Shown here: in pieces, positions 8,658-42,309 of the stretch
Layout: each line of letters opens with the position of its first letter
Numbering within the stretch: the first letter of the stretch is position 1
Origin: Gammaproteobacteria bacterium
Lineage (GTDB): Bacteria > Pseudomonadota > Gammaproteobacteria > Steroidobacterales > Steroidobacteraceae
Length of the DNA stretch: 55,187 nucleotides
Assembly: GCA_015655465.1 (NCBI GenBank)
Contig: JAATEY010000004.1
Coordinates: forward strand, 1 to 55,187
Direction of reading: 5' to 3'
The notes under the pieces: model-generated
What the model was told of the DNA's origin: nothing
The model's input: the letters and a program-made list of their open reading frames with translations, nothing else
Databases searched by the model: none
Made by a program: the position numbers and the translations under genes

Positions 8658-10655
8658 TCATCTGCCTGACGTTGCGCCTGGGCTCACGGCGTTCAGCCAT
8701 GTTCGCGTGTCCTGCGCCTGCGGATCACGCAGCCACGCGAACACCAGCGTATTCCAGAGAATGCGCAGCACATACGTGCGCGTCTCGTTGTAGGGAATGT
8801 TCTCGATCCATATGTCCGGATCCATCGCGCGCGGAGGCAGCCACCGCTGCACCGCGCCGGGCCCTGCGTTGTAGCCCGCAAGCGCCACTGGCAGCTGGTC
8901 ACCAAAGCGGTCGAGCAGCTCTTTCAGGTGGGCCGCGCCGAGCACGACATTGACTGATGGCTCGAACAGGGCGGTGACCGATGGCACCGGCTGCTTCCAC
9001 AGGCGGGCCGTTCGGCGGGCCGACTCTGGCAGCAGCTGCATCAGGCCGCGCGCATCGGCAGTTGAAACCGCGTCACTGCGGTACAGGCTTTCCTGGCGTA
9101 TGACACCGTAGATGAGGTCGGAGGGCAGACCCGAGACCTGCGCCGCAGCTGCCACCTCCGCGTCGTAAGGCCGCGGGTACAGCAGCGCATAGTCGTTGAA
9201 CACCCGCTCGCCAGTCGCAGTGGCGACTGCCTGGTCGTACCAGCCCCAGCGCGCGGCGAGATGGATGGCCTGGGCCCGCGCGGGCGGCTGCAGCGAATCC
9301 TGGCCGAAACGCCACTCGGCCTGCGCGTTGCTCACGAGCCCGCTCAAGCGAAGCTCGCGTGCGCGCACGAACGGCGGCAGGTTCCCGATGCTGGCGAGCT
9401 GCGTTGCGTCCAGCGGCAGGCCTTTCGGATTCGGCGCGATCCTGCGCTTCAGCCGCGCCGCGGCCATCGCGGAGTAGTAGTTGTCCTCCGCGAGGATCGA
9501 TTCGTACAGCTGCTGCGCAGAGGCGGTCTCTCCCTGCTGTGCCGCCACGCGCGCCGCCCAGTAGCGCCAGCGCGCGGTGCGACGGTTCTCTTCCGACATG
9601 GCGGCGATGCTGCGTGAGGCCTGCTTCCAGTCACCGGCCCACAGTGCTGCCCGCGCTTGCCACTCGCGGGCGGAGTCGTCGAAGTCGGAAGCATCGACGC
9701 GCGCGAAGTACTTGAGCGCATCCGCATCGCGGTCCCACGACAGCGCCAGCGCAAGTGCCAGCGCGAACGGGCTCGCCGCGCGCGCGTCGAGCTTGCGTGC
9801 ACGCAGCAGCGTCTCGAAGCGCTGCCCGGCCGCCGCCCGATCGGCGCGCGCCAGTAGCGTCCACCCGGCGAGCAGCGTGCGGGTGTCGACAGTGGTCTGC
9901 GGCGCGGTGAGCAGGGCATCGATCTCGCGTTGCGGGTTCTCGAGCAGTGCGGCCCATTGCAGCAGCGGGCCGGCCCGCTCGGCCGGCAGCGGTCGGGCGA
10001 TCTGGCGCGCGAAGGCCGCATTGCCGCCTTCGAGCGCGAGGCGCACGCGCTGCTCGATCAACGCATCGCTTAAAGTCCCGATGCTGCGCAGCCAGTCGAA
10101 CGCGCGTTCGCACTCGGGAAGGCTGCGCGGCGTCAGCCAGGCCTGGGCCACCTCCGCCGCCAGGCCCTCGGTGCGCTGCAGTTCGATACGCGCGGTGAAT
10201 CCATGACAGCGCAACGCAGCGCCGTCGCTCGCGTCGCGATGAAACGCGAGGAACTGGTTCCACCTGGCGCGCCCGGCGAGGCCGGCGAGCCAGCTGCGGC
10301 GCAAGTCCTGCGCCACCGGTTCCCCTTCGTGGGCACGGAGGAACAACGCGACCTGCTCATCCAGCACCGCCGGCACGCCGGCGCCCGCGACACCCAGGGC
10401 CTGGCCCAGGCGCGCGGCCTGCAGGTAGGGATACAGGACGTAGCTGCGCAGACTCGCACTGTCGACAGTTGCGACGACGGCGGGAGCGTCGGCGACCCGG
10501 CCATAGGCCTGCTGGAACTCGGTGCGCTGTCCGGCGAGCGGGTCGCCGGGGCTCGCGGCGCGGCTGCCCGGGAGTGCGAACAGCATTGCGAGGCATGCTA
10601 CAAGCCAGCGCCGACAGAGGGGGCCCGGTGCAGATTGGTCTGGAGTGTTGTGCAT
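8658..10655 (-). CDS. slt: soluble lytic murein transglycosylase (Slt70-like)
   Basis: 665 aa with a signal peptide, a long superhelical Ala/Leu/Arg/Trp-rich U-domain and a C-terminal SLT catalytic domain (IRQESLYRSDAVSTADARGLMQLLPESA ... AGYNAGPG). Confidence 0.9.
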   Translation of the reverse strand: MHNTPDQSAPGPLCRRWLVACLAMLFALPGSRAASPGDPLAGQRTEFQQAYGRVADAPAVVATVDSASLRSYVLYPYLQAARLGQALGVAGAGVPAVLDEQVALFLRAHEGEPVAQDLRRSWLAGLAGRARWNQFLAFHRDASDGAALRCHGFTARIELQRTEGLAAEVAQAWLTPRSLPECERAFDWLRSIGTLSDALIEQRVRLALEGGNAAFARQIARPLPAERAGPLLQWAALLENPQREIDALLTAPQTTVDTRTLLAGWTLLARADRAAAGQRFETLLRARKLDARAASPFALALALALSWDRDADALKYFARVDASDFDDSAREWQARAALWAGDWKQASRSIAAMSEENRRTARWRYWAARVAAQQGETASAQQLYESILAEDNYYSAMAAARLKRRIAPNPKGLPLDATQLASIGNLPPFVRARELRLSGLVSNAQAEWRFGQDSLQPPARAQAIHLAARWGWYDQAVATATGERVFNDYALLYPRPYDAEVAAAAQVSGLPSDLIYGVIRQESLYRSDAVSTADARGLMQLLPESARRTARLWKQPVPSVTALFEPSVNVVLGAAHLKELLDRFGDQLPVALAGYNAGPGAVQRWLPPRAMDPDIWIENIPYNETRTYVLRILWNTLVFAWLRDPQAQDTRTWLNAVSPGATSGR

Positions 10656-10892
10656 AGGTGGCGCGAGGGCATCGATAGTCGGATATCAATACCATGCCCC
10701 CGGCGAGGTGTTCGACTACCAGCACACGCCGTTCCGAAGCCCGGCGCCTGCAGCCGCATCCATTTCCGGTGCGACGACCAAGGGCGTTACTTCAGTCTTG
10801 ACGCGGCGCATCATCGGGCGGGAAGTCATAGGTAGAGATTGTCTGGATCTGGCGCTAGGTTACGCATTGAACGGGCGCGTAGCGAGAAGGTC

Positions 10893-11501
10893 ATGAAGCA
10901 ACCTGCACAACTCCTGTCCACGGTACGTGTCGCGTTGATCTGTTGTGCAGGCACCTTGCCTGCCGTCGCGGCCGCACCGGATGTTCCGGTCCTCGCCCAG
11001 GAACTCGAGAAAGTGCGAGCTTCCGGGGAGGTTCTAGCTGCCTTGTGGACTCGCCGCAGCGACTCCTACACCCTGCAGATCGTGCTTCGCAACCCGTTGT
11101 CTGGCGTGTTTGGGTCTCGCACGCTGGCGCTGATCGACGGCCGGCGCGTTGTTTCGACCTCCAACCAGGCGGATGTGGCGATGCCGCCCAACCCGGCAAC
11201 GCAAATATCCCGACCAGACGCGGAAGCAATCAAGACGCTGGTAGGGGACGCACTGAAGCCACTCCCGCGAACCCAGGTGTGGCTCCTGGGACCGGACGGC
11301 ACACTCATTCTTCCGACACAGCGCCCGGCCGATAATTCCAGGCCCAATGCCACCAGCCTCCGCAACATCGGGACCGCGGGGTCCGAGTTGCTGTACAGGT
11401 TCCTGCTCTCCGACGGCCAGAATGCGGTTGCCGCAGCGGTCATGATCGGCGACAACTTCTACATCGAGCGACTGGCACCACTCGAGGTCGACAGGAAATA
11501 G
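10893..11501 (+). CDS. hypothetical secreted protein
   Basis: Frame 10839..11501 trimmed to ATG 10893 (MKQPAQLLSTVRVALICCAGTLPAVAAAP signal peptide). No family recognised. Confidence 0.5.
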   Translation: MKQPAQLLSTVRVALICCAGTLPAVAAAPDVPVLAQELEKVRASGEVLAALWTRRSDSYTLQIVLRNPLSGVFGSRTLALIDGRRVVSTSNQADVAMPPNPATQISRPDAEAIKTLVGDALKPLPRTQVWLLGPDGTLILPTQRPADNSRPNATSLRNIGTAGSELLYRFLLSDGQNAVAAAVMIGDNFYIERLAPLEVDRK

Positions 11502-11797
11502 TCGGCGGCTGCCCCGATAGCTGGACTGCATTCGTTGACCCTGCGGTCCGCGCGAGCATCTTCGGCGTCACGGCACAATTCCCGACCCCTCGACCGCCGA
11601 CAAGATGAACCGCGCGTCGGAAAGATGCCTCTTGCAATAGTAGATATCTGCATCGGCACACCAGCGCCGTCTGAAAAAGGCGGTGCTCCTCCACGCTCGA
11701 GGCTGGCGGTGGGCGTGGCTCTGAAGCATAGTCGGTGTTCTCCGTTTCATCAGTCGGACGACCGGATGCGAATCGAATCGCGCGTCGGGAGAAGGGA

Positions 11798-12292
11798 ATG
11801 AATGCCGAAGAAGACATCGAGCGACGCGCTCACGAGCTTTGGGAAGCAGAGGGTCGCCCGGACTCCAGAGCACTCGATCATTGGTTCCAGGCGAAGGAAG
11901 AGACAGCCTGCAAGGCTCTCGGCTCTGCCACTTACAAAGCCACCCAGCAAGGTTCGGTGGTCACGGTCACTGCCAGCGGTGCCTTGCCAAGACACGGTAT
12001 GCAGGCTTCATTGGAAAACAACCGGCTGGAACCGGATGACCCGGATTACGCGGGCGTGGTCCTTGGGTACATGCTGCTCTTCCGGCCGGTCGGGCCGCTC
12101 GGCGAAGCAGGGCCTGTTGCGTTTCAGGCGACTGCAACGTTTGAGTACCAGGGCAGCGTCAACAAGGTTCTGGTATTCGACCGTTACGGGCCGCACATGG
12201 TGAAAGTAGCGCGGCCCCGGGTGAGCGTAACCAAACCTGAAAAAGTGGTCCCCGTCTTGAAGTCTCCCGCTCCCAAGCGGTCAAGGAAATGA
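11798..12292 (+). CDS. DUF2934-domain protein with unknown C-terminal domain
   Basis: Frame trimmed to ATG 11798. N-terminal IERRAHELWEAEGRPDSRALDHWFQAKEE matches the DUF2934 signature as I remember it. Basic C-terminal tail. Confidence 0.65.
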   Translation: MNAEEDIERRAHELWEAEGRPDSRALDHWFQAKEETACKALGSATYKATQQGSVVTVTASGALPRHGMQASLENNRLEPDDPDYAGVVLGYMLLFRPVGPLGEAGPVAFQATATFEYQGSVNKVLVFDRYGPHMVKVARPRVSVTKPEKVVPVLKSPAPKRSRK

Positions 12293-12344
12293 ACCGGATG
12301 CGCCATGCAATGCAGGGCATCTCCAACGCGGCCGGGATCGAGTG

Positions 12345-12602
12345 CTAGCTATGGTCCTTGATGTGGTTGCGCAGATACTCACTGTGTGCGTGATCCTTCT
12401 CCTTCTTCACGGCGCGGGCCTTGCCGTGTTCCGCGGCGAGCGAGCGCTCACGCGTCTTGCCAGTGCTCACGGAGGCGGAAAACGGGAATAATCGCTCGGG
12501 GTTCGCGGCGCCGCAGGCCGGACAGTCCGGCGTCTCGTTCAGCTTGACGATCTGCTCGAAGCGGTGTGCGCACTTTCGGCATTTGTAGTCGTAGATCGGC
12601 AT
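12345..12602 (-). CDS. FmdB-family zinc-ribbon putative regulatory protein
   Basis: MPIYDYKCRKCAHRFEQIV...CPACGA: the CxxC...CxxC zinc-ribbon N-terminus typical of the FmdB/CxxC_CxxC_SSSS family. Lies 39 nt downstream of paralog P1 on the same strand. Confidence 0.85.
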   Translation of the reverse strand: MPIYDYKCRKCAHRFEQIVKLNETPDCPACGAANPERLFPFSASVSTGKTRERSLAAEHGKARAVKKEKDHAHSEYLRNHIKDHS

Positions 12603-12641
12603 GGGAACAAGATACCTGAAGTGCTCCCGTCGATTGGCTGG

Positions 12642-13385
12642 TTATCGCGACGCCGACGGCTTTGCCGGTGCCGCTCCTTCCCCTGCCGGCTGCATCCGGT
12701 GCAGCGACAGCGTGAAACGGATGAACGGGTCGTCGTTGATTTCGATATCAATGGTCATGAACAGAAGCTTCGCGTCGGGTCTGGCATCGATGCGGATGGT
12801 CCTGTCGCAGGTTCGCCATTGTGCTTCGCCCCGGGGTGGCGGTCTCATTGAATTGAGCAGGACGGGCGTGTTCACGCATGGCGTCCTGAAAGTCGCAGTA
12901 TTGCCAGCGATGAAGCCCAGCCCGCCTTCGGGAAGACCCTTGTTGTCCACCAGCAGATAATTGATTCCCGACTTGCCGGGATCGAGGCCATACAGCGCCA
13001 TCGCCGGGTCCAGGTAGGACACGCCGCCCGGGATGTTGTAAACCCCGCCCCGCTCCGTGTCCGAGGGAGTCACCACTTCATGGATGTCCTCCCACGCCAC
13101 ATTGAGGATGCACTGCACGCCGGGACCGGTGCCCACGGAGACGCAGTCAGCCGTGCCCTTGATCCCCTCGCAGTAGCCACAGTCGCCTTTGGCAACCACG
13201 TTGATGATGCCCTCGAACTGGTACCTTCCCACCAGCCGCCTGAGCCAGACATCCGGCTCCGCTGTCGGCGTGACGATCTCCTCCAGTTTCGGCTCCGTAT
13301 GCGGCTGGGCGCTGACTCTGCCCGGAGCCAGCAGGGCGGTACATGCCAGCAGTGCGACGACCATGACGCGGAGGCAGCAGATCAT
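12642..13385 (-). CDS. secreted Cys-rich protein, uncharacterised paralog family (copy P1)
   Basis: ORF 12642..13460 trimmed to ATG 13385 (MICCLRVMVVALLACTALLAPGRVSA signal peptide). Shares the blocks WLRRLVGRYQFEG, GTGPGVQCILNVAW, LLVDNKGLPEGGLG, ATFRTPCVN and RTCDRTIRIDA with P2-P4. Confidence 0.8.
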   Translation of the reverse strand: MICCLRVMVVALLACTALLAPGRVSAQPHTEPKLEEIVTPTAEPDVWLRRLVGRYQFEGIINVVAKGDCGYCEGIKGTADCVSVGTGPGVQCILNVAWEDIHEVVTPSDTERGGVYNIPGGVSYLDPAMALYGLDPGKSGINYLLVDNKGLPEGGLGFIAGNTATFRTPCVNTPVLLNSMRPPPRGEAQWRTCDRTIRIDARPDAKLLFMTIDIEINDDPFIRFTLSLHRMQPAGEGAAPAKPSASR

Positions 13386-13467
13386 GGCCTGGGGCGTATC
13401 TAAGTTGAAGCGCGCCGCCAGCTCGTTGTTCAGTTCGGCATCGATCTGCATGTCGATCACCTTGCCT
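13386..13467 (-). pseudogene. relic of the 3' end of a P4-type paralog fused in frame to P1
   Basis: Encodes (KV)IDMQIDAELNNELAARFNLDTPQA directly upstream of the P1 ATG. It aligns to the P4 C-terminus (KVIDMQIDTELNTLLAARFNFRMRRVAQIQTPAAKP) with a ~29-nt deletion. No upstream body remains. Confidence 0.6.
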
Positions 13468-13480
13468 TGAACCTTGTTCT

Positions 13481-13508
13481 GCCCCGGGCCGGCAATCCGG
13501 CTCGGGGC
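13481..13508 (-). terminator. GC-rich hairpin downstream of the ABM-domain gene
   Basis: GCCCCGAGCCGG-ATTG-CCGGCCCGGGGC on the minus strand (12-bp stem, 1 mismatch), 8 nt after the stop at 13516. No U-tract. Confidence 0.35.
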
Positions 13509-13515
13509 AGCGCTG

Positions 13516-13893
13516 CTAACGCTTTCTGGCAGGCTTCTTTTTCTTCTTGGCAGCAGAGGATTTCTTTTTCTTTTTCGCCGCTTTCACGGGCTTCGCCGTG
13601 GCGAGCTTCAGAATTACCGCACCCGATACCGGATCGGTTACGCCAAGTTCGCCGCCAAGGTCCTCCAGTGCATCGCGAATGCCATCCAGCATGGAGATCA
13701 TCTGGGGACGCGCATTGACGATGCTCTGCTGGGTTCTCCACTCGGCAATGAAACAATAGGTCCGATCGCCCGTCTTGATTACCGATCCGCCAATGAACCC
13801 CTTGAGTTGGGGTCTGGCTTTGCGGTGATAGTCGATGAACCGTTCTTCTTCGCCGGGTTTGACACGGAATCGCACGACGTTGAACGCAGTCAT
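13516..13893 (-). CDS. ABM (antibiotic-biosynthesis-monooxygenase-like, ferredoxin-fold) domain protein with poly-lysine tail
   Basis: Frame trimmed to ATG 13893, preceded by AAGGAG. About 95-aa ABM-like core (MTAFNVVRFRVKPGEEERF...CFIAEWRTQQS) followed by ...AKPVKAAKKKKKSSAAKKKKKPARKR. Confidence 0.7.
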   Translation of the reverse strand: MTAFNVVRFRVKPGEEERFIDYHRKARPQLKGFIGGSVIKTGDRTYCFIAEWRTQQSIVNARPQMISMLDGIRDALEDLGGELGVTDPVSGAVILKLATAKPVKAAKKKKKSSAAKKKKKPARKR

Positions 13894-14300
13894 GGCGCTA
13901 CTCCTTTTGCAAAAAGTTGATGTTTCCTGGCAACCTGCATGCGCCGGTTTTTCGTGAAATAGGTCTCGCGGCTGCATGCGGATGCGTTTGGCACGGTGCG
14001 AGCATAACTTACACTTCCGGACGCCGCCTTCCCCGGTGCCACATTTCCTGCGCATTCCGTCCCACTAAGGATTGTTGGGGACTGCTGAAACTTCGTCATG
14101 TTCGCGCCCGTCCCATCGTACGTACTGACAGATTCGAAACGAGGTAGCCGACATGTATACGATTGCACTCTCCACCCTGTTGTTTCACAGCCTTGTCACC
14201 GTGGCAATGATGCTGGGCATGGCGCTGACTTCCTGCCTGCCGGACCGGCCAACGCGCACATGATTGCCGCATGTGGCGACTGTGGCCGGCATCGGCCGGG

Positions 14301-15134
14301 CTATCGCGACGCGGAAGGCTTTGCCGGCGCCGGGACTTCCCCGGTCTGCGGCACGCGGCGCAGCGACATCGTGTAGCGGGTCCAGATCTCGTCGTTGATT
14401 GCGAAGTCGATCGACATATGCAGGAGCCTGGCGTCGGGCTCCGCGTCGATGCGGAGGGTTCTTTCGCAGGTTCGCGGGGTTTGCCGGAACAAGGGTGGTT
14501 CGGCTGGTTGAGGTGGCGGTTTCATCTTTTCAAGCATGGTGGGCGCGTTCACGCAGGGCGTCTTGAAGGTCGCCCTGTCGCCAGCAATGGAGCCCAGCCC
14601 GCCTTCGGGCAGACCCTTGTTGTCCACCAGCAGATGATTGATCGCCGACTTGCCGGGATCGAGGCCAAACAGCAGCATCGACGGACCCAGGCTGGACACG
14701 CCGCCCGGCAGGTTGTACACCCCGGCCAGCGGGTTGTACCGCTGGTTCGGCTTGAGTTCCTTGGGATACACCACTTCATACAGGTCTTCCCAGGTCACAT
14801 TGAGTACGCACTGCACACCGGGACCGGTGCCGATGCCCGTGCAGTCACCCTTGCCCTTCATCGCCTTGCAGTACGGTACCGGTTCGGGGGGCGGGTCTCC
14901 GGCGCCGGGTTCATCCGGGTCGGGAACGCACCTGTAACCAGGATAGGTCACTTCGACCATGCCTTCGACACTGTACCTTCCCACCAGCCGCCTCAGCCAG
15001 GCGGCGATGTCCGCTGGCTCCGTGACGGGCCTCGCCTGGGTGACGGCCTGGCCTGCCGCGGAAGGGCGTGGCACGGCGTGCGCGCCGCCGGAGGCAAACA
15101 TCGCGATACAAGCCAGTACGGTTATTGCGCGCAT
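14301..15134 (-). CDS. secreted Cys-rich protein, uncharacterised paralog family (copy P2)
   Basis: ORF 14301..15380 trimmed to ATG 15134 (MRAITVLACIAMFASGGAHA signal peptide). Same conserved blocks as P1/P3. Carries a 19-residue Pro/Asp-rich insert between Cys1 and Cys2. Confidence 0.8.
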   Translation of the reverse strand: MRAITVLACIAMFASGGAHAVPRPSAAGQAVTQARPVTEPADIAAWLRRLVGRYSVEGMVEVTYPGYRCVPDPDEPGAGDPPPEPVPYCKAMKGKGDCTGIGTGPGVQCVLNVTWEDLYEVVYPKELKPNQRYNPLAGVYNLPGGVSSLGPSMLLFGLDPGKSAINHLLVDNKGLPEGGLGSIAGDRATFKTPCVNAPTMLEKMKPPPQPAEPPLFRQTPRTCERTLRIDAEPDARLLHMSIDFAINDEIWTRYTMSLRRVPQTGEVPAPAKPSASR

Positions 15135-15151
15135 GATGGCTTTTCCTGACC

Positions 15152-15927
15152 CTATCGCGACGCCGGGGATGCGCTGGATACCACGGGGCCCTGAACCTGC
15201 GGCACGCGGCGCAGCGACATCACGTAGCGGGTGAACGGCTCTTCGTTGATGTCGATGTCGATCGACATGAACACGAGCTTGGCGTCCGGTTTGGCGTCGA
15301 TGTAGATGGTTCTGTCGCAGGTTCGTGCCGGTGGGTCCAGCGGTTTCATCGCGCCAAGCAGGGCGGGCCCGTTCACGCATGGCGTCTTGAAGGTCGCCCG
15401 GTTGCCAGCGACGAAGCCCAGCCCGCCTTCGGGAAGACCCTTGTTGTCCACCAGCAGATAGTTGATCCCCGATTTGCCGGGATCGAGGCCAAACAGGAGC
15501 ATCGCCGGATCCAGGTAGGACACACCGCCCGGCAGGTTATACACCTTGCCGTCATCCATATTCACATCGTAGAGGTCCTGCCATGTGACATTGAGTACGC
15601 ACTGCACGCCGGCGCCGGTGCCGATCGCGATGCAGTCACCCTTGCCCTTGATCGAACTGCACCAGGGTTCGGCCGGAGGAGGCGGGTTGGAATTGGCCGG
15701 GTCCGGTGGGAGCTGACCGCACCTGTGATCCTCGGTTTTGACCACTTCGACGAGGCCCTCGAACTGGTACCTTCCCACCAGTCGTTTGAGCCAGACATCC
15801 ATGGCCGGGTCGGCGCCACCACTTCATCCAACCGCGGTTCCGTACGCGGCTGGGCGCTGGCCCTGCCGGAGAGCAGCGCCGTACACCCCAGCAGCGCGAT
15901 CACCATGATGCGGAAGCAGCAGATCAT
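15152..15927 (-). pseudogene. secreted Cys-rich paralog (copy P3) with an apparent 1-nt frameshift between signal peptide and mature domain
   Basis: Signal-peptide exon-like part (ATG 15927, MICCFRIMVIALLGCTALLSGRASAQPRTEPRLDEVVAPT) is in a different frame from the body (15802..15152, MDVWLKRLVGRYQFEG...). Alignment to P1 DNA shows one missing nucleotide near 15805-15812. Confidence 0.6.
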
Positions 15928-16658
15928 GGCTTGGCTGCGGGTGTCTGAATCTGCGCCACGCGGCGCATCCGGAAGTTGAAGCGCGCCGCCAGCAGGGTGT
16001 TCAGCTCGGTATCGATCTGCATGTCGATGACCTTGCCCTCGGACTCGGCGGTAATGCGGATGATCCGCTGGCAGCCCTCGGGTGCGTTCACGCACGGTGT
16101 CTTGAAGGTGGCCGTATCGTTGATGATGAAGCCCGTTGCGCCTTCGGCCAGACCCTTGCTGTTCACCTGCAGGTAGCGGATGCCCAGATCATCGGGCTCC
16201 ATGGCGTACAGGATCATGGCCGGCGTCAGGTCGGAGACCCCGCTCACGATGGCTTGCCCGTTGGGTCCGGGTATTTGCGGCCAGCGCACATTGATCTCGC
16301 ACTGCACGCCGGGCGCCACACCGAAGCCGATGCAGGTTCCCGTCCCCGTGGCGGTCCAGCGGTCCTGGGGGTTGCCCTTGCCGCCCAGATCGACCTTGCC
16401 CTCGAAGGTGTACTGTCCGAGCAGCCGCCTGATCCAGTCAATCAATACCGAGGGCTTCCGGGTGGGCTTCTCGGCGCTGACGATCACTTCACCCAGTTCG
16501 TCGGTCTGGGTCGATTTGGGGGCTGGCTGCGATGCGGGCGGCTGTGACGCAGGCGGCCGGGCGCTCGCGGGGCTGGCGGCAATGCCTGTGCCGGGCAGCA
16601 GCAGCAGCGCAACCGCGCAGCTCTTGAGTGTTTTCATGCCACGGATTCCGGTCGACAT
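15924..16658 (-). CDS. secreted protein, divergent member of the paralog family (copy P4)
   Basis: ORF 15924..16781 trimmed to ATG 16658 (GAGGGG SD 8 nt upstream; alternative ATG at 16637). Signal peptide, Pro/Ser/Gln-rich linker, then WIRRLLGQYTFEG, GVAPGVQCEINVRW and ATFKTPCVNAPEGC. Its stop overlaps the P3 start (ATGA). Confidence 0.75.
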   Translation of the reverse strand: MSTGIRGMKTLKSCAVALLLLPGTGIAASPASARPPASQPPASQPAPKSTQTDELGEVIVSAEKPTRKPSVLIDWIRRLLGQYTFEGKVDLGGKGNPQDRWTATGTGTCIGFGVAPGVQCEINVRWPQIPGPNGQAIVSGVSDLTPAMILYAMEPDDLGIRYLQVNSKGLAEGATGFIINDTATFKTPCVNAPEGCQRIIRITAESEGKVIDMQIDTELNTLLAARFNFRMRRVAQIQTPAAKP

Positions 16659-16916
16659 GATCCTTGCCCCTCTTAAATGTTTGCAGCGAGTGTGCCACGT
16701 GGCCGGCGCCGGGCGTAGTCTGGCGTCGCCCCTCACGACATTCATCCACTGGATGGCGTCCCGTCCGATGGTGCGCCGCAATAGCGGTTCCCCCCGGTTT
16801 TCAGGGGCTCATGACCCACTGTAGGAAGAAGCCGACTGCGCGTTGGGAGCGGCGCCGCTGGCTCCACCTGTGGCGACGCGAAAGACTGTGGGCAAGCGAA
16901 GTCACAGGAGGATGCC

Positions 16917-17129
16917 ATGAACGAGCAGATCATTCGCAATTGTGTGGTGACGGACCGCCTCGCCCGGGGCCTGGCGGAGTACTACTACCGCCGCGTGCAT
17001 GGCATTAGTTGTGGAGATCTGCTGCCGCCGGAGGAGCGTGCGAGCATCGACAGTCGCTACGACCAGCGCCTGCAGCGCGCCCGCCTGTTCATCCAGGGCT
17101 CACGGTCCCAGCTGCTCGGGGCAGGCTAA
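16917..17129 (+). CDS. hypothetical small protein
   Basis: 70-aa ORF with a strong SD (AGGAGG) 5 nt upstream of the ATG. No family recognised. Confidence 0.45.
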   Translation: MNEQIIRNCVVTDRLARGLAEYYYRRVHGISCGDLLPPEERASIDSRYDQRLQRARLFIQGSRSQLLGAG

Positions 17130-17199
17130 CCAGCCCACACACGGGCAGCGCACCCAGCGGCTGCGTGGCAGCCCTCGGCCCGTCACCCTGAGTTGATGG

Positions 17200-17421
17200 T
17201 CAGGCCTCAGGTCCATGACACACGGCTTCGACATTGTGTCCATCGGGACCAATGACGAATGCTCCGTAGTAGTCTGGGTGGTAGTGCGGACGAAGTCCGG
17301 CAGCGCCATTGTCCTTTCCGCCTGCTGCCATGGCGGCAAGATGGAACTCATCCACCTGCTTTCGGCTCCCGGCGATAAATGCGAGATGCAGGTGGGCAGG
17401 ACGTTCCTTCGCCTCAACGAG
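17200..17421 (-). pseudogene. relic of a VOC/glyoxalase-family gene (C-terminal half only)
   Basis: Not in the ORF track. Minus-strand translation gives LVEAKERPAHLHLAFIAGSRKQVDEFHLAAMAAGGKDNGAAGLRPHYHPDYYGAFVIGPDGHNVEAVCHGPEA*, a textbook glyoxalase/bleomycin-resistance-fold C-terminus. In-frame TGA at 17422-17424 and no start codon or N-terminal half. Confidence 0.65.
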
Positions 17422-17518
17422 TCACTGTGTTCGTGACGCCCAACTGGTCTTGTCACACTTTCCAATTTGGTGGAAGCTGGGGATTGGCTGCAAGCACAAA
17501 GAATTCCAAGGGGCCACC

Positions 17519-18436
17519 ATGTCATTTGCTGATCGATACCGCGACCCGGAAAGAGGCGACTTCCATCTGCTGACACTGCTGCGTGACGTGGCCATCCTGA
17601 TTGTAGCCCTCATTGTCCTGCGCATCATCTGGCCCTTCTACTCAGTGCCAACGGGAAGCCGCGGCGTGGTCACGCAATTCGGCAAGATCGTCGGAATCGA
17701 GCAGGAGGGGCTCGCCGTGCTGCCGCCGTGGCGCAAGCTTTCGGTTTTCAATATCAGGGCCGAGTCCGCCACCATAGAAAATGCAGATGGTGCCACCAGC
17801 GACACGCAACCCGTACGCGTCAGCCTGACTGTGAGATACAGCATCGAGCCCAACCGCGTCGCAGAAGTGTTCGAGAAATACTCCCATGACGGTGACCTGT
17901 CTTCCTACGTGCAGACTGCGGCCCAGGAAATATTCAAGGCGGTCACCGCGAGATATACCGCGCCGGATCTCATCGGCCAGCGCGCCGCCGTCTCCAGCGA
18001 CATCTACGCAGCACTGAGCCAGAAGCTCAAGCTGTACGGGGCGCAGGTCGTCAACATCGACATGCGCAACTTCTCGTTTTCCGAGTCCTACATGAGCGCG
18101 ATCAACGAGAAGGTGACGCAGGAGCAATTGCGCCTCGGTGCCGAGAACAAACTGAAGACCGTCGAAGCGGAGCAGAAGCAGAAAGTGGCAGTGGCGGAGG
18201 CAGAAGCCAACGCCCTGCGCGCCCGGGCGGATGGCGAGGCGTACGCAAATCTCAAGGTTGCGCAGGCACAGGCTGAGGCGCTCCGCGTGCAAAACGCGGC
18301 GCTGGCGCAGAACAAGGATGTGCTGGAATTGAGGCGAATCGAAGTGGAGAAGGTCAAGGCGGAACGCTGGGATGGAAAGCTTCCCCAGGCAATCTATGGC
18401 AGCGCGCCGATACCGTTCCTGAATGTAGGCAAATAG
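17519..18436 (+). CDS. SPFH/band-7 (prohibitin/HflC-like) membrane protein
   Basis: Frame trimmed to ATG 17519. N-terminal TM (VAILIVALIVLRIIW), an SPFH core (GSRGVVTQFGKIV...), and a C-terminal Ala/Glu-rich coiled coil. Confidence 0.9.
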   Translation: MSFADRYRDPERGDFHLLTLLRDVAILIVALIVLRIIWPFYSVPTGSRGVVTQFGKIVGIEQEGLAVLPPWRKLSVFNIRAESATIENADGATSDTQPVRVSLTVRYSIEPNRVAEVFEKYSHDGDLSSYVQTAAQEIFKAVTARYTAPDLIGQRAAVSSDIYAALSQKLKLYGAQVVNIDMRNFSFSESYMSAINEKVTQEQLRLGAENKLKTVEAEQKQKVAVAEAEANALRARADGEAYANLKVAQAQAEALRVQNAALAQNKDVLELRRIEVEKVKAERWDGKLPQAIYGSAPIPFLNVGK

Positions 18437-18648
18437 CTCAATCCCGGCGACATGGTGTTGCGGCAATTCGCCGCGTAGATGCCGCGGTTCATCCGGCATG
18501 CGACCCACCATGTGCGTGCCGTTCTCGATGCGGTAGCACCCGGGATGTTCCTTCACCAGGGCGCAGCGCGCGGCGCCAGTCCCCGATAGCGCCACTTCAA
18601 TGGATAAGCGATCATCGTATGGCTTGCATCTACGACATGGGGATGATG

Positions 18649-19998
18649 ATGTCTTGCCACCGGTTCCTGGTATCGCCATTGCTTGCCGTGCTGGCCATGG
18701 CGTTCGTCCGGGAGGCAGCCGCCGCCACGCCCGCGCGTCATCAGGACTATGTTACGGATTCCTCGACCTGTGATGGTTTTGCCAGGCTGCCGATAGTCAT
18801 GGCTCCGGGCTACTGCGCGGGTCTGGTGTTCGGACCGCCGCCCGGCAGTTTCCAGAAGAGAACGCTGAAGAATCCGCGGATGCTGCTGCCTCTGGCCGAC
18901 GGGCAACAATGGATCGTCACGGATCTTGGTGGCTGGCAGGAAGGTAATGGCGCGGTCTGGCTGCTGCAGGCACGGCGGAATTTACCGGCACAGCTGAGAC
19001 CCCTGATCCGCGGCCTGGATCTCCCGCACACGGTCGCGCTTGGGCCGGATCAACGCATCTACGTGGGCGAGATGGGTCGTATCTTCCGATTCGATGCGAT
19101 GGCAAAAGATCCGGCAAGCACGATCGAGGTTGTCGTCTCCGGCCTGCCCGACAACAAGCTGCATGACAACCGGCATCCACTGTCGCATTTCGTGTTTGAC
19201 AGGGATGGAGCACTGCTGGTCAACGTCGGTGCGCCCACCGATAGCTGTGCGCCTGACGCAGGCGTGCCAAAGGCGGCGACCTGCGCGTTGTCGGAAGGTG
19301 ATGACGGCAAGGCCGTCATACGCCGGTATGAATACCTGGGTGCCGGCAAATGGAGCGCCGCGTGGACGGTTCTCGCCCGTGGACTGCGTAATTCACTGGT
19401 TCTGCTTCGCCACGAATCGGGGTCGCTGCTGCAGGCTGAAAACAGCATCGATGCGCCAGCCTCGCGTGATCGACCGTATGACGAGATCAATCTGATCAGG
19501 CCGGGTGCGCACTATGGCTGGCCGTATTGCGTCGACATGGATAGCCCGACCGCTGGTTGGCGGCAATCGAAAGCAATGGATTGCAAATCCGAAGCCCATG
19601 CCAGACCTGTTGTGCTTCTGCCGCCCCATGTTGCTCCACTGGGTGCGGTTTATTACCCGGGCACCATGTTTCCGGACATGAAAGGCAGACTTCTCATGAG
19701 CTGGCATGGCTACAGGGCGACAGGTTCAAGACTTGTGGCGTTCGAAGTGAACTCGCAAGGCGTTCCCATCGTGGCGGCAGGGGCCCAATATGCCGAGTAT
19801 GCGGCTGCCGGCATGACGATGCGGAAGTTTGCCGGTCCCGCGGCCCAGCCCCTCGTGCTTACAGAGCGCTGGGATCTGAAGGCTGGAGTTCGACCGGCGG
19901 GTGCGCCGGTGGGTATTGCGGTAGCGCAGGACGGAGCGATCTGGGTTGCGGACGACCGCAATGGCGCCGTCATACGTATCGCCGTGGATCGACCCTGA
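18649..19998 (+). CDS. PQQ-dependent sugar (glucose/sorbosone) dehydrogenase-like beta-propeller protein
   Basis: Start chosen at the third ATG of ATGATGATG (GGGGA SD upstream; alternatives 18619-18646). Signal peptide. Motifs DLPHTVALGPDQRIYVGE, GLRNSLVLL, DEINLIRPGAHYGWPYC and GIAVAQDGAIWVADDRNGAVIRI. Confidence 0.75.
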   Translation: MSCHRFLVSPLLAVLAMAFVREAAAATPARHQDYVTDSSTCDGFARLPIVMAPGYCAGLVFGPPPGSFQKRTLKNPRMLLPLADGQQWIVTDLGGWQEGNGAVWLLQARRNLPAQLRPLIRGLDLPHTVALGPDQRIYVGEMGRIFRFDAMAKDPASTIEVVVSGLPDNKLHDNRHPLSHFVFDRDGALLVNVGAPTDSCAPDAGVPKAATCALSEGDDGKAVIRRYEYLGAGKWSAAWTVLARGLRNSLVLLRHESGSLLQAENSIDAPASRDRPYDEINLIRPGAHYGWPYCVDMDSPTAGWRQSKAMDCKSEAHARPVVLLPPHVAPLGAVYYPGTMFPDMKGRLLMSWHGYRATGSRLVAFEVNSQGVPIVAAGAQYAEYAAAGMTMRKFAGPAAQPLVLTERWDLKAGVRPAGAPVGIAVAQDGAIWVADDRNGAVIRIAVDRP

Positions 19999-20070
19999 TT
20001 TGCTTGGGGGGCCGCCGTGCATCGCAGTAAGATGCTGGCCTCTTGCAACCATCAGCCCGGTACGCACGCC

Positions 20071-22188
20071 ATGACCAATTCCCGCCTTTCCGCCCTGATC
20101 GCCGGTTCGATTGCGATATCCGCAGTCTTCTCTCCAGCCTGGTCTGCCGGCAAGGCTGCCGACGTTACCGCCAGGCGCATGGAAAACGCCGACAAGGAAT
20201 CCGGCAACTGGATGTCCCATGGCCGCACCTGGGGCGAGCAGCGCTTCAGCCCGCTGAAGCAGATCAACGAAAGCAACGTCGGTCGCCTCGGCCTGGCCTG
20301 GTTCGCGGACCTCGGAACCTACAAGGGTGTGACGGCGACGCCGCTGGTCATTGACGGCGTGCTCTACAACATCTCTGCCATGGATATCACCACTGCCTAC
20401 GATGCCACCAACGGCACGGTGCTGTGGACCTACGATCCGCGGCTTACTCCGGAGCAGGCTGCGGTGGCCTGCTGTGGTCCGGTGAGCCGTGGCCTTGCTG
20501 CGTGGGAAGGCAAGCTCTTCATCGGCGCCCTGGATGGCAGCCTGATCGGGCTGGATGCAAAGACCGGCAAACAGCTGTGGCGAACGCAGACGGCCGATCC
20601 GGGCCAACCCATCTCGATTACCGGTGCGCCCCGTGTGACAAAAGACGGCCTTGTGGTCATCGGCAACGGCGGCGGCGATCTGGGTGCGCGCGGCTACATG
20701 AATGCATTCGATGCCAACACCGGCAAGATGGTATGGAAGTTCTACATCGTGCCAGGCGATCCCTCGAAGCCTGATGGCGTTGCTTCGGATTCCATCATGG
20801 AGATGGCAGCCAGGACCTGGAACGGCGAGTGGTGGAAGACCGGCGGCGGTGGCAACAACTGGGACGCCATCGTCTACGACCCGAAGCTCGACCTCGTGTA
20901 TTTCGGCACGGGTAATGGCTCGCCGCATCCGCAGGCTTTCCGCACGCCCGGTGGTGGCGACAATCTCTTCATCGGCTCCATCGTGGCCGTGGACGCGAAG
21001 ACCGGCAAGTACAAGTGGCACTACCAGGAAGTGCCGGGCGACGAGTGGGATTACGACAGCACTTCGCCGCTGGTGCTGGCTGAGCTGACGCTCAACGGCA
21101 AGCTGCGCCAGGTCATCATGCATGCGCCGAAGGATGGCTTCTTCTATGTGCTCGACCGTGCCACGGGCGAGCTGCTGTCGGCGAAGAACTTCGTGCCCAA
21201 CACCTGGGCCTCGCATGTGGATCTGAAGACCGGTCGCCCGGTGATCTACCCGGAGGCCATGGTTGAAGTCGAGCCGCGCCTGATCACCCCGAATGCCGCG
21301 CACAACTGGAACCCGATGTCCTACAGTCCGCTGACAGGCCTGGTGTACATCCCCATCCAGGAGCAATGGATGATCATCTCGCGTATCGAGGACGGGAAAT
21401 TCCAGTTCCGCCTCGGTCGCACGACCATCGGTTCGGGCAACGCCAATCCGGAGCTGCGGCGCGAGTTCAACCAGAAGGTGAACAACGGCGACAAGGGCTA
21501 CACGCTGGCCTGGGATCCGGTCACGCAGACCGAGCGCTTCCGCATCGATGCGCCGTTCTTCTTCAGTGGCGGCACCATGGTGACAGCGGGCAACCTGCTG
21601 GTGCAGGGCACGATGAGCCGCACGCTGGCGATCTATACGGCCGACAAGGGCAGGAAGCTGTGGGAGTCGCCGACGATGTCGGTGCCGGTGGCTGGCCCGA
21701 TCACCTACTCGGTGAATGGCAGGCAGTACATCGCGGTGAATGCCGGCTGGAACCAGGCCATCGTGCACGGCCTGAATAACCACGACGAGCCGTTCGTCAA
21801 CGGCCCGGCCAAGCTCGTGGTGTATGCACTCGATGCAAAGGGTGTGGCGTTGCCGCCGCTGCCCGCAGCCGAGACGCTGTCGGCTCCGCCGCGTGACCGG
21901 CAACCGGCGGACAAGGTTGCAGCCGGAGCCGTGGTGTTCGCCAGGATCTGTGCGACCTGCCATGGCCAGAATGCGATTGGCTCGGACAAGAAGGATCTGC
22001 GCTTCATCAAGCCGCAGTCGCATACGGACTTCAACGACATCGTGCTGCGGGGCAAGTTCAAGGACCGGGGCATGGTGGCGATCACGGACATCTCGCAGGA
22101 AGAGGCCGATGCCGTGCATGCGTACATCATCGCGCGTGGCCAGGAAGACTGGGTGCAGTCGATAGCACAGCCGCCGGCGCGGCGCTGA
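20071..22188 (+). CDS. quinohemoprotein (PQQ + heme c) alcohol dehydrogenase, type II
   Basis: Frame trimmed to ATG 20071 (signal peptide ...SPAWSA). PQQ-ADH propeller with vicinal Cys pair (AVACCGPVSRG) and catalytic region GDEWDYDSTSPLVLAEL. C-terminal cytochrome c domain with CATCHG. Confidence 0.9.
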   Translation: MTNSRLSALIAGSIAISAVFSPAWSAGKAADVTARRMENADKESGNWMSHGRTWGEQRFSPLKQINESNVGRLGLAWFADLGTYKGVTATPLVIDGVLYNISAMDITTAYDATNGTVLWTYDPRLTPEQAAVACCGPVSRGLAAWEGKLFIGALDGSLIGLDAKTGKQLWRTQTADPGQPISITGAPRVTKDGLVVIGNGGGDLGARGYMNAFDANTGKMVWKFYIVPGDPSKPDGVASDSIMEMAARTWNGEWWKTGGGGNNWDAIVYDPKLDLVYFGTGNGSPHPQAFRTPGGGDNLFIGSIVAVDAKTGKYKWHYQEVPGDEWDYDSTSPLVLAELTLNGKLRQVIMHAPKDGFFYVLDRATGELLSAKNFVPNTWASHVDLKTGRPVIYPEAMVEVEPRLITPNAAHNWNPMSYSPLTGLVYIPIQEQWMIISRIEDGKFQFRLGRTTIGSGNANPELRREFNQKVNNGDKGYTLAWDPVTQTERFRIDAPFFFSGGTMVTAGNLLVQGTMSRTLAIYTADKGRKLWESPTMSVPVAGPITYSVNGRQYIAVNAGWNQAIVHGLNNHDEPFVNGPAKLVVYALDAKGVALPPLPAAETLSAPPRDRQPADKVAAGAVVFARICATCHGQNAIGSDKKDLRFIKPQSHTDFNDIVLRGKFKDRGMVAITDISQEEADAVHAYIIARGQEDWVQSIAQPPARR

Positions 22189-35980: not shown

Positions 35981-36073
35981 CGGTAGCAGCTGGCAACCAA
36001 TGGAATTTGTCTTCGCGGGGATCTGGAGTCCCTGTATCGGGCCTTGCCGTGCCGTTGTTCGCTGATCGCAGGA

Positions 36074-36089
36074 TGGCACGCAGTTTGCT
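36074..36089 (+). promoter_or_regulatory. sigma-54 (-24/-12) promoter of the nitrate-assimilation operon
   Basis: TGGCAC-GCAGT-TTGCT is an exact match to TGGCAC-N5-TTGCW, 144 nt upstream of the nrtA ATG. Confidence 0.6.
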
Positions 36090-36134
36090 TCTGTACTCGT
36101 CGCGAAGCTCACGCAATGGGCTTCACGGCAACGC

Positions 36135-36201
36135 CGCCGGTTCCGGTCTGGTCGCAGCTAACGCTGCTGATCCATACCGCATACCGGTGGCGTTTTTTTT
36201 T
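36135..36201 (+). terminator. leader terminator/attenuator upstream of nrtA (candidate NasT antitermination target)
   Basis: CGCC(ggtt)CCGGT at 36135-36147 pairs with ACCGG(t)GGCG at 36183-36192. It is followed by a T9 run (36193-36201) and encloses the smaller hairpin GCAGC-TAAC-GCTGC. Another hairpin, GAAGC...GCTTC, lies at 36104-36124. Confidence 0.5.
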
Positions 36202-36232
36202 GGGTTTCAGGAACGGCAAAGCTGGAGAGCAA

Positions 36233-37624
36233 ATGAAAGGCAAGCTGGGTGTATCACGACGCAGGGTTCTGTTGGGGATTGCGCTGGGCGCGCTGTCCGC
36301 TCACGCCGCGGTGTCCCAGGCCAAACCGATGAAGCTCGAGAAGGAGCAGATCAAGATCGGCTTCATCAAGCTGACCGACATGGTGCCGCTGGCCGTTGCA
36401 TACGAGAAGGGTTTTTTCGAAGACGAAGGTCTTTATGTGACGCTGGAGCCGCAGGCCAACTGGAAGGTGGTGCTTGATCGCGTGATTACCGGCGAGCTCG
36501 ATGCCTCGCACATGCTGGCTGGCCAGCCGCTCGGCGCGACGATCGGCATCGGCACCAAGGCCGACATCATCACTGCCTACAGCATGGATCTGAACGGCAA
36601 CGCAGTGACCGTTTCGAATGCCGTCTGGCAGCAGATGCTGCCGAATGTTCCCCGGGATGCGCAGGGAAAGCTGGTACGTCCCGTCAAGGCGAACGCGCTG
36701 AAGCCCGTGATCGATCAGTTCAAGGCTGCCGGCAAGTCATTCCGCATGGGTGTGGTGTTTCCCGTTTCCACCCACAACTATGAACTGCGCTACTGGCTGG
36801 CTTCCGGTGGCGTGAACCCCGGCTTCTACTCGCCGTCGGACGTTACCGGCCAGATCAAGGCCGACGTACTCATATCCGTGACGCCGCCACCGCAGATGCC
36901 GGCCACGCTCGAGGCTGGCACGATCAATGGTTATTGCGTGGGTGAGCCCTGGAACCAGCAGGCGATTTTCAAGAAGGTGGGCCTGCCGGTCGTCACCGAC
37001 TATGAAATATGGAAGAACAACCCTGAAAAGGTAATCGGTGTCACCAGGGCCTGGGCTGACAAGTATCCCAACACCCATCTGGCCATGATCAAGGCGCTGC
37101 TGCGCGCCGCGGCATGGCTCGACGCGAGCCCGGCCAACCGCAAGGAGGCCGCCGCGCTGATTTCACAGTCGCAGTACGTGGGTGCCGACGTGCGCGTCAT
37201 CTCCAGCAGCATGACCGGAACCTTTGAGTACGTACCCGGCGAGAAGCGCGCGGTGCCTGATTTCAATGTCTTCTACCGCTACTACGCCACCTATCCGTTC
37301 TACAGCGACGCCATCTGGTATCTGACGCAGATGCGCCGTTGGGGCCAGATTCCTGAAGGCAAGCCAGACAGCTGGTACCTGGAAACAGCCAGGAAGGTCT
37401 ACCGGCCGGACATCTACCTCAAGGCCGCAAAGCTGCTGCTGGACGAGGGCAAGCTGAAGAAGGAAGACGTGCCCTGGGAGTCCGACGGATTCAAGCCTGC
37501 CACCAGGGATTTCATCGATGGCGTGGAATACGACGGTCACAGGCCCAACGCCTACATCGATGCATTTGCCATCGGGCTGAAGGGCCAGCAGAAAGTCGAG
37601 GGCGCCAATGTCGTCGGCAAGTAG
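36233..37624 (+). CDS. nrtA: nitrate ABC transporter substrate-binding protein
   Basis: Trimmed to ATG 36233. Tat-type signal ([20 protein letters not shown]). NrtA/CmpA-like body ([28 protein letters not shown]...). Confidence 0.9.
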
Positions 37625-38738: not shown

Positions 38739-38741
38739 GCC

Positions 38742-40424: not shown

Positions 40425-40458
40425 TGCTTTGCATACGTACATGAATGGGAGATACAGG

Positions 40459-41697: not shown

Positions 41698-41721
41698 TCA
41701 TGGAAGTCCAGACTCCACGCC

Positions 41722-42309
41722 ATGACAGAACATTCGCTGCGCGTATTGATCGTCGACCAGAACCTGATCCGGGCGTCGATCCTGGAGGACGGTCTGCGCG
41801 AGGCGGGCTATCGGGATCTGATCGTGGTGCGCGACATGCAGAACCTGCTGCGCCGGATCATCGATGAGGAGCCCGATGTGATCCTGATCGACCTGGAAAA
41901 TCCGAACCGCGACGTGCTGGAGCAGATGTTCCAGGTGTCGCGGGTGGTGCGCAAGCCGGTGGCGATGTTCGTCGATCAATCCGACCGCAGCGCCATCGAG
42001 GCGGCGATCGATGCAGGCGTGGGTGCATACGTGGTCGATGGCCTGCGCAAGGAGCGGGTGCAGTCGATCGTCGACATGACGATCAGCCGCTTCCGTGCCT
42101 TCGAGAAGCTGCGCGCCGAGCTGGACGACACGCGCCAGCAGCTGCAGGACCGCAAGCTGATCGACCGCGCCAAGGGCATTCTCATGAAGCAGCGCGGAGT
42201 GGGCGAGGAACGCGCCTACGAAATGATGCGCAAGGCAGCGATGGATGCCAACCTGCGCCTGGCGCAGGTGGCGCAGAGCGTGATTACGGCCGCGGAGCTG
42301 CTCAAGTGA
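41722..42309 (+). CDS. nasT: ANTAR-domain response-regulator-like antiterminator
   Basis: REC-like N-domain (LRVLIVDQNLIRASIL) and C-terminal ANTAR (LQDRKLIDRAKGILMKQRGVGEERAYEMMRKAAMDANLRLAQVAQSVI). Confidence 0.9.
   Translation: MTEHSLRVLIVDQNLIRASILEDGLREAGYRDLIVVRDMQNLLRRIIDEEPDVILIDLENPNRDVLEQMFQVSRVVRKPVAMFVDQSDRSAIEAAIDAGVGAYVVDGLRKERVQSIVDMTISRFRAFEKLRAELDDTRQQLQDRKLIDRAKGILMKQRGVGEERAYEMMRKAAMDANLRLAQVAQSVITAAELLK

Follow-up and report, generated by a model that had tools for sequence, protein, structure and literature searches.

Tandem arrays of predicted periplasmic calycin-type barrels in Steroidobacteraceae, with a TonB-box-like motif in the first gene product

What might a member of the Steroidobacteraceae do with a tandem array of exported, cysteine-rich proteins that belong to no described family? 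The array lies in a 55,187-nucleotide (nt) stretch of DNA (hereafter the window; positions 1 to 55,187 of contig JAATEY010000004.1, assembly GCA_015655465.1) and consists of four paralogous genes on the (-) strand, which we call P4, P3, P2 and P1 in the direction of reading. Steroidobacteraceae are abundant, mostly uncultured bacteria of soil and sediment. From sequence comparison and structure prediction we find that the four genes belong to a family that is real, rare, taxonomically narrow and undescribed, and we regard it as very probable that its members are exported calycin-type barrels arranged in arrays of two gene types, A and B. What is new here, to judge by the databases and literature searched, is the family, the two-type array and the TonB-box-like tether on a soluble barrel; the fold itself is already known. 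As to function, we tentatively suggest a set of periplasmic barrels that bind a small ligand, with the A subunit docked to a motor protein of the TonB/TolA type.

P4 (15924-16658) is the A-type gene and would encode, in 244 amino acids (aa), a signal peptide, a Pro/Ala/Ser linker, the TonB-box-like motif and a 10-stranded barrel with four Cys. It is followed by the B-type genes P3 (15152-15927) and P2 (14301-15134; intact, 277 aa, six Cys, with a Pro-rich insertion inside the first Cys pair), while P1 (12642-13385; intact, 247 aa, six Cys), also of type B, is set apart from the main array. The initial annotation had placed four paralogous (-) strand genes at these positions, and we find them there, with P4, P2 and P1 intact; P3, however, as it was given (776 nt) is not an open reading frame (ORF), for reasons set out further below. 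As described, P4 and P3 overlap in an ATGA stop/start, and 17 nt separate P3 from P2. The sequence blocks said to be shared by the copies are real; identity amounts to 57-64% within P1-P3 and to 37-42% between these copies and P4, and chance resemblance is excluded by the scores of the copies with a hidden Markov model (HMM) of the family (168-366 bits). There are six Cys in the mature parts of P1-P3 and four in that of P4, as had been counted, but the reported spacing C-x7-C-x9-GVQC has to be corrected to C-x8-C-x10-C.

Searches with P1 and P4 returned 136 and 114 clusters at 90% identity, respectively, among 5.8 billion proteins, all of them 'hypothetical' and without a Pfam domain, and an exhaustive profile search found 407 proteins at E≤1e-3 among 1.84 billion representatives clustered at 50% identity. 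Among GTDB genomes (one per species) there are ten loci, all in metagenome-assembled genomes (MAGs); six are labelled Steroidobacteraceae, and four only Gammaproteobacteria, Pseudomonadota or uncultured bacterium. Wherever sources are named, they are nearly all Steroidobacteraceae or unclassified gammaproteobacterial MAGs. Neither Pfam and NCBIfam scans of the four window copies nor a Pfam scan of 120 relatives one by one gave a significant match, and a profile search of the PDB sequences with the family gave none either, nitrobindin included. The only match that recurred, of DUF4438_C to the GDCxxIGxGPGVQC hairpin in 49 of the 120 members, reached about 15 bits where the cut-off is 27, and was rejected as a local similarity below threshold. 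The earlier impression that no known domain signature is present is thus borne out, and profile searches lead to no characterised family. A literature search for periplasmic nitrobindin-like proteins found no papers, and one for soluble TonB-box proteins found nothing relevant.

Some family members are tandem two-barrel fusions (e.g. P0197). Two others contain an additional domain of about 480 aa and of no recognisable kind, C-terminal to a B barrel in P0130 and N-terminal to an A barrel in P0207; it opens with its own LDEVV-type strand after the signal peptide. The fused parts of P0130, P0207 and P0158 match no Pfam or NCBIfam domain, and the ~480-aa domain has no homolog in any of the retrieved related loci. 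P0207, a distant metagenomic relative, adjoins a HigB/HigA-like gene pair.

AlphaFold2 was run with a 120-sequence alignment for P1 and with 102 A-type sequences for P4. For P1 it gave a mean predicted local distance difference test score (pLDDT) of 91.6 and a predicted template modelling score (pTM) of 0.80, and in this model an N-terminal helix (WLRRL) leads into a closed all-beta barrel with 10-12 strands. The P4 model (pLDDT 82.4, pTM 0.72) is well defined in the barrel, residues 61-240, where most 10-residue blocks lie near or above pLDDT 90 (range 61-96); residues 1-60 have no secondary structure and low confidence (pLDDT 55-69 before about residue 61). Foldseek searches of the PDB returned the same top set for both proteins, namely nitrobindin (3wjb), the nitrobindin domain of THAP4 (3ia8), OssO/OlmO (7sfp/7sfn), RsfG (7qh3) and Ycf58 (3bdr), at E 1e-4 to 1e-3 and with target-normalised template modelling (TM) scores of 0.57-0.76; for P4, the matches to RsfG, OssO and THAP4 nitrobindin score 0.62-0.75. 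Based on these models, we are confident in assigning a 10-stranded barrel of the nitrobindin/FABP-like branch of the calycins. A Foldseek search of viral structures gave only uncharacterised giant-virus proteins with a poor root-mean-square deviation and was uninformative.

Nitrobindin and THAP4 (THAP4_heme-bd/DUF1794), 10-stranded antiparallel calycin barrels after a short N-terminal helix, are among the best matches of P1 and P4 (E 2e-4 to 9e-4, target-normalised TM 0.65-0.68), and the start of the barrel, L-x-x-L-x-G-x-[YF]-x-x-E-G, presumably recalls the nitrobindin N-terminal motif. The array proteins nevertheless differ from them in several ways: there is no sequence-profile match (Pfam, E≤1, four copies and 120 relatives), no His among the invariant or 90%-conserved columns of either the A or the B alignment, and the proteins are exported, about 60-90 residues larger, and distinguished by two to three predicted disulfides, loop insertions and the A/B arrays. 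OssO and OlmO share the barrel topology and give the highest target-normalised TM (0.71-0.76); they are, however, cytoplasmic actinobacterial biosynthetic enzymes without signal peptide or disulfides, they are only 10-12% identical to the array proteins, and there is no polyketide cluster context here. With Blc lipocalin, YceI and DUF1579 the array proteins share the calycin superfamily, the envelope location and presumed small hydrophobic ligands, but none of 120 members matches Pfam Lipocalin, YceI or DUF1579. Classical lipocalins and nitrophorins rank lower in Foldseek, and lipocalins reach a TM of only 0.23-0.38. A lipocalin is an 8-stranded barrel with a sequence signature and, in bacteria, usually a lipobox, none of which the array proteins have. 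The initial hunch that the N-terminal strand recalls lipocalin-like DUF1579 proteins therefore holds at the level of the fold, where Foldseek finds calycin barrels, but not at the level of the family (PF07617, no match at E≤1 in the 120 members). Two other kinds of envelope protein were considered and rejected: an outer-membrane barrel, since the C-terminal aromatic signal is missing and it is soluble barrels that match best, and a surface protein of the Slam/TbpB type, for which the TM is only 0.25-0.28 and no DUF560 gene lies nearby.

In which compartment do these barrels reside? P4, P2 and P1 begin with a positively charged n-region, a hydrophobic core and an AxA-type cleavage site (predicted at ...RVSA|QPH, ...GAHA|VPR and ...SPASA|RPP, respectively), and such N-termini of the signal peptidase I type are conserved across relatives. 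A Sec signal peptide had been assigned to every copy; this is correct for P4, P2 and P1, but not for P3, where the signal segment is out of frame. That the proteins might be lipoproteins was rejected: relatives keep the AxA|Q cleavage site but not the LLAC of the P1 signal peptide, and the previously noted absence of a lipobox extends to the relatives, among which neither a lipobox nor a signal-peptide Cys is conserved.

The cysteines point the same way. In a census of 300 full-length relatives (P1 numbering), C81 and C92, which lie opposite each other across a hairpin in the model, are present in 300/300; 289 members have C170 as well as C193, 4 have neither and 7 have one of the two; and the variable loop between strands 1 and 2 holds 0, 2 or 4 Cys in 299/300. 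Since Cys are gained and lost in pairs, we take them to form disulfides, hence to reside in an oxidising compartment, and the view that two invariant and one optional predicted disulfide bonds staple each barrel is supported by this pattern. A DsbA-like thioredoxin gene (Thioredoxin_4, 31.9 bits against a cut-off of 23.2) lies directly 5' of the array in the related locus L005, and a DsbB gene just 3' of it in L017. Signal peptides, paired Cys across 300 relatives and these neighbours together back the disulfide-bonded, exported fold for which the initial annotation had argued.

Profiles of P1-like (B) and P4-like (A) copies separate all copies without overlap. With the A profile, A copies score at least 329 bits and B copies at most 186; with the B profile, B copies score at least 243 bits and A copies at most 180. 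P4 reaches 378 bits with the A profile against 168 with the B profile, and the B-profile scores of P1, P2 and the mature part of P3 are 366, 351 and 343 bits. The two profiles are clearly homologous (hhalign E 5e-62). At 16 distinct loci with an A gene, the A gene always comes first, and at 15 of these it is followed by one to three B genes on the same strand, often joined to it by stop/start codon overlaps; the array is thus a recurrent arrangement in related genomes and not a peculiarity of the window.

Pairwise comparisons were made with L001, a contig from a close relative of the window genome. The A copy (82% aa identity, nonsynonymous divergence dN 0.11-0.12) is about as conserved as the flanking genes for FmdB (82%, 0.11-0.12), a pyrroloquinoline quinone (PQQ) dehydrogenase (86%, 0.07-0.09) and a soluble lytic transglycosylase (SLT; 87%, 0.07), whereas the B copies (63-67%, 0.22-0.26) show no clean one-to-one orthology and evolve two to three times faster than the A copy and the flanking genes. 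The ratio of nonsynonymous to synonymous divergence (dN/dS) is about 0.13-0.48 for all copies, the mature part of P3 included, and 0.12-0.28 for P4 against its L001 ortholog. These values lie well below 1 and hence speak for purifying selection on the array genes; the copies do not evolve neutrally. The initial annotation had also pointed to DNA-level conservation of a central block among P1-P3, and this is indeed marked, with 89-92% identity, 96-100% over LLVDNKGLPEGG, and identical codons at 87-93% of identical residues. The three paralogs of L001, however, share 76-81% identity over this block, and the copies of the two genomes 79-87%, from which we conclude that the conservation is mostly amino-acid constraint plus codon bias; the modest excess of identity in the window copies is consistent with some homogenisation between them. 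L001 also carries, directly after its SLT gene, a fifth and more divergent member (14606-15220, (+), 204 aa, 49-55% identical to B copies); no such member follows the SLT gene of the window (8658-10655).

What distinguishes the A copy, apart from its place in the array? Between the Pro/Ala/Ser linker and the barrel, A copies carry the motif [DE]-E-L-x-E-V-x-V-S-[GA]-E-K-P-T-R-K, which the B copies lack. In P4 it reads DELGEVIVSAEKPTRK (residues 53-68; 16455-16502, (-)), and in the 102 A-type sequences L55 is conserved at 98%, V58 at 98%, V/I60 at 100%, G/A62 at 100% and the Pro at 90%. Since the unstructured, low-confidence region of P4 ends at about residue 60, the motif is placed at the junction of tether and barrel. 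Its register, L-x-x-V-x-V, has the spacing of the TonB-box consensus tLDxVxV reported for all 72 TonB-dependent receptors of Xanthomonas campestris (PMC1790865), a resemblance of six to seven residues. A comparison within one locus, L006, is instructive: the A copy reads DELSEVVVSGEK, and the N-terminus of a TonB-dependent receptor-like ORF at the locus edge (N-terminal match to TIGR01779, positions 3-72, E 4e-4) reads DELEEIVVTGSN at the corresponding place. Of 3593 six-frame ORFs of the retrieved DNA, only 16 contain the hexamer [DE][VIT][VIL]V[ST][AG], among them 13 A copies and the L006 receptor. We regard the likeness of the motif to TonB boxes as a strong lead towards a possible docking to an envelope motor.

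How could such a tether be used by a soluble protein? TolB offers a precedent: it is soluble and periplasmic, and binds the TonB-like motor protein TolA through a disordered strand at its N-terminus. We propose that the barrels would bind a small ligand in the periplasm, probably one of hydrophobic or amphipathic character. Binding of small ligands is the commonest use of this barrel fold, and it is from this that we infer a ligand-binding role, for and against which the case seems to us evenly balanced. The B paralogs might supply binding capacity or differing specificities, a role that fits them because they evolve faster and have variable loops. The ELxEVxVS[GA]EKPTRK strand of the A copy, on its flexible tether, would bind a TonB/TolA-type motor protein at its C-terminal domain through beta-strand augmentation, and this docking would couple hand-over of the ligand, or dissociation of an A-B complex at the envelope, to the proton-motive force; the N-terminal TolA box serves TolB in an analogous way. 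Like the TolA box of TolB and the TonB box of transporters, the A strand is short, N-terminal and alternately hydrophobic, on a disordered periplasmic tether. In contrast to TonB-dependent transporters, the array proteins have no Plug or TonB_dep_Rec match and no 22-stranded barrel and are only 244-277 aa long; in contrast to TolB, they have no beta-propeller, and no Tol genes are adjacent.

Several observations weigh against this proposal. A 23-column profile of the motif retrieved no receptor from the PDB sequences, only a chance match to EKPTRKV in PDE10A. No gene for TonB, ExbB/D, TolA or a TonB-dependent receptor adjoins the ~16 arrays examined, and none is present in the window. A similarity of six to seven residues is weak evidence when taken alone. 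Several of the best structural matches, the enzymes OssO/OlmO and the regulator RsfG, are not carriers; the conserved charged residues D80, K149, E153, N172, R195, R229 and R230 would also fit catalysis; and the lack of an invariant His makes heme binding of the nitrobindin kind unlikely. Gene neighbourhoods, finally, largely reflect the shared ancestry of related MAGs and give no functional anchor. We therefore hold the motor-docking step by itself to be doubtful, and its most specific form, in which the A copy is a soluble periplasmic calycin with a genuine TonB box (or one for a TolA paralog) and the motor pulls on a soluble A-B carrier complex, to be quite improbable.

The reading that survives best beside it does without a motor altogether: the proteins would be passive periplasmic calycin binders or chaperones, and the A strand would assemble with the B barrels or dock to some other envelope partner. 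The evidence of fold, export and array applies to it equally, the missing Ton/Tol genes and the motif profile that finds no TonB-dependent receptor are what it would lead one to expect, and translationally coupled A and B genes would suit a complex of fixed stoichiometry. It accounts less well for the motif itself, whose hydrophobic register and flanking acidic residues closely match the TonB box of the lineage's own receptor; moreover, a strand that assembles with the fast-evolving B copies should co-vary with them, yet it is almost invariant. On this balance we consider a purely passive binder rather unlikely.

The proteins could instead be periplasmic enzymes of calycin fold, either isomerases/cyclases like OssO and OlmO or detoxifiers of the nitrobindin type, acting on a substrate related to the neighbouring PQQ quinohemoprotein dehydrogenases, with paralogs that cover different substrates. 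The OssO/OlmO spirocyclases are indeed among the best structural matches, at the TM values given above, many polar or charged residues are invariant, and genes for PQQ and cytochrome c dehydrogenases lie 0-10 kb from the array in the window, L001, L003/L004, L006, L020 and L021. The sequence identity to OssO/OlmO is very low, however, the PQQ genes have no fixed distance or orientation and do not occur near the array in the other loci examined (e.g. L005, L016, L017), and the A-specific tether motif would be left without an explanation, so that we judge an enzymatic role to be unlikely.

TonB-dependent bacteriocins characteristically carry a TonB-box-like motif in a disordered stretch at the N-terminus, which raises the thought that the array encodes secreted antagonistic factors, with A imported into competitors like group B colicins or pyocins and the B copies as variable effectors or specificity modules. 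The rapid evolution of the B copies, two to three times that of the flanking genes, their reshuffling and duplication, and the HigB/HigA pair beside one distant relative would suit such factors. But Sec signal peptides deliver only to the producer's own periplasm, the motif is carried by the slow-evolving copy, no immunity, lysis or secretion genes are adjacent, Pfam and NCBIfam scans reveal no toxin domain, and the locus is a stable chromosomal syntenic block rather than a mobile island; we thus find this very hard to credit. That the array consists of decaying, redundant duplicates without a current role is largely refuted: the frameshift in P3, a gene remnant 5' of P1 and the relatively high dN/dS of B copies by NG86 (0.34-0.48) hint at decay, but dN/dS is well below 1 for all copies, at least 30 positions are invariant or nearly so across ~120 relatives, and the order of A then B is conserved across 15 loci, as is the upstream element to which we now turn.

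A core sequence, GGCACACTCG / GTGGCACACTCG, recurs 27-40 nt 5' of the first array gene in the window, L003/L004, L006, L007 and L011 (at about 8527 in L003, 9204 in L006, 1306 in L007 and 9789 in L011), and variants of it are found in L016 and L018. In the window the element reads TGGCACACTCGCTGCA (16682-16697, (-)) and stands 39 nt ahead of the P4 ATG. Its TGGCAC-N5-CTGCA is a good match to the -24/-12 elements of sigma-54 promoters; the related loci keep TGGCACACTCG without the GC at -12. Since the -12 GC at consensus spacing is present only in the window, the element is at most a candidate sigma-54 promoter, and no gene for an enhancer-binding protein was seen near the array. Palindromes overlap the element in L003 (GGTGCC/GGCACC) and in the window (GCCAC/GTGGC), and instead of a promoter the element may be an operator. 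No riboswitch was found by an Rfam scan of 11500-18000, and scans for promoter and terminator consensus sequences gave counts at the level of shuffled sequence.

The lesion in P3 is a 1-nt deletion at CCGACC-CGG near 15807, seen in DNA alignments with P1 and two L001 paralogs. It leaves the signal-peptide part (15927 to ~15810) and the mature domain in different frames, the latter being open only from an internal ATG at 15802 (15152-15802; 216 aa, without a signal peptide). There is no slippery site at CCGACC-CGG, and programmed frameshifting was rejected. As the mature part still has a dN/dS of 0.17-0.34 against the B2 copy of L001, the deletion would be either a recent pseudogenisation or an assembly error. 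A second irregularity lies directly 5' of P1, where a stretch of ~95 nt (13386 to ~13480, (-); ..VIDMQIDAELNNELAARFN..) aligns at the DNA level with the P4/P3 junction and represents a P4-like 3' end, in frame with P1; the family HMM finds in it a weak second stretch (model positions 219-243). An A-type remnant in this place implies that the A/B gene junction was once duplicated and the array rearranged, and because the remnant is in frame, gene callers over-extend P1 to 269 aa. For annotation this means that the mis-started P1 hides its signal peptide, and that P3 is called as a signal-less protein of 216 aa.

Which of the neighbouring genes belong to the array? An FmdB-family zinc-ribbon gene (12345-12602, (-)) lies 39 nt 3' of P1, and its identity, as first annotated, was confirmed with PF09723 (Zn_ribbon_8; E 3e-15, 56.4 bits against a cut-off of 34.4) and TIGR02605 (58.7 against 31.3). 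Its membership in the array was not: it is on the same strand 3' of the array in the window and L001, on the opposite strand 5' of it in L007, and separated from it by three opposite-strand genes in L020. A gene for an ABM-domain protein (13516-13908, (-); Pfam ABM, 25.3 bits against 23.1) with a polylysine tail, KPVKAAKKKKKSSAAKKKKKPARKR, sits between P2 and P1, and has been found at no related locus. FmdB and ABM genes therefore do not accompany the arrays in a consistent manner, and both were rejected as components of the system; FmdB is a syntenic neighbour, and ABM a neighbour only in the window.

More widely, the recurrent neighbours are PQQ and cytochrome c dehydrogenases, SLT, a GGDEF-EAL response regulator and FmdB, along with regulators of the PadR or ArsR type or an extracytoplasmic function (ECF) sigma factor with a HEAT-repeat anti-sigma factor, and they vary in distance and orientation among loci. 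Since the genomes are related, we read this neighbourhood mainly as shared synteny without a firm functional anchor. In the window, a soluble glucose/sorbosone dehydrogenase-like gene (18619-19998, (+)) and a PQQ and cytochrome c quinohemoprotein dehydrogenase gene (20017-22188, (+)) lie 5' of the array in divergent orientation.

Other features of these loci are recorded here as side observations. A 36-aa hydrophobic ORF, MYTIALSTLLFHSLVTVAMMLGMALTSCLPDRPTRT, with a GAGG ribosome-binding site (14153-14263, (+)) is convergent to P2. Its conserved counterpart in L001 has the same position, is annotated with 59 aa and shares 77% identity over 40 aa. In the window, the ABM gene sits between this ORF and the unit of A-type remnant and P1. 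A DUF2934-domain gene (11735-12292, (+)) between FmdB and the SLT region has no L001 counterpart. Tandem paralogous proteins of ~320-340 aa without a Pfam or NCBIfam family are encoded in L001 (8639-10539), L005 (4226-6219), L017 (1917-3898) and L021 (7525-9503) and are absent from the window; the L005 pair is preceded by a ~165-aa protein homologous to window 10839-11501. Further away, the window holds an assimilatory nitrate/nitrite cluster (36044-50156, (+)) with an NrtA-like binding protein, an ATP-binding cassette (ABC) ATPase, NirB-like and Rieske-NirD-like reductases and a NasA-type molybdopterin nitrate reductase, which marks the window as ordinary chromosomal DNA and not a mobile island.

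For the organism, then, the array represents a lineage-specific envelope system under purifying selection, and its proteins, with a predictable fold but no database family, are a clean target for the definition of a family. If the most specific form of our proposal were true, with a genuine TonB or TolA-paralog box on a soluble A copy, the Ton/Tol systems would have a client of a new class, which would also represent a calycin family, stapled by disulfides, that is new and specific to Steroidobacteraceae; the motor would pull on the A-B complex instead of the plug of a transporter, and might in this way, for example, remove a hydrophobic ligand from the outer membrane or unload the B barrels. 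If the tether is indeed a motor-binding box, soluble barrels that bind ligands would join outer-membrane transporters, bacteriocins and TolB among the clients of the Ton/Tol systems.

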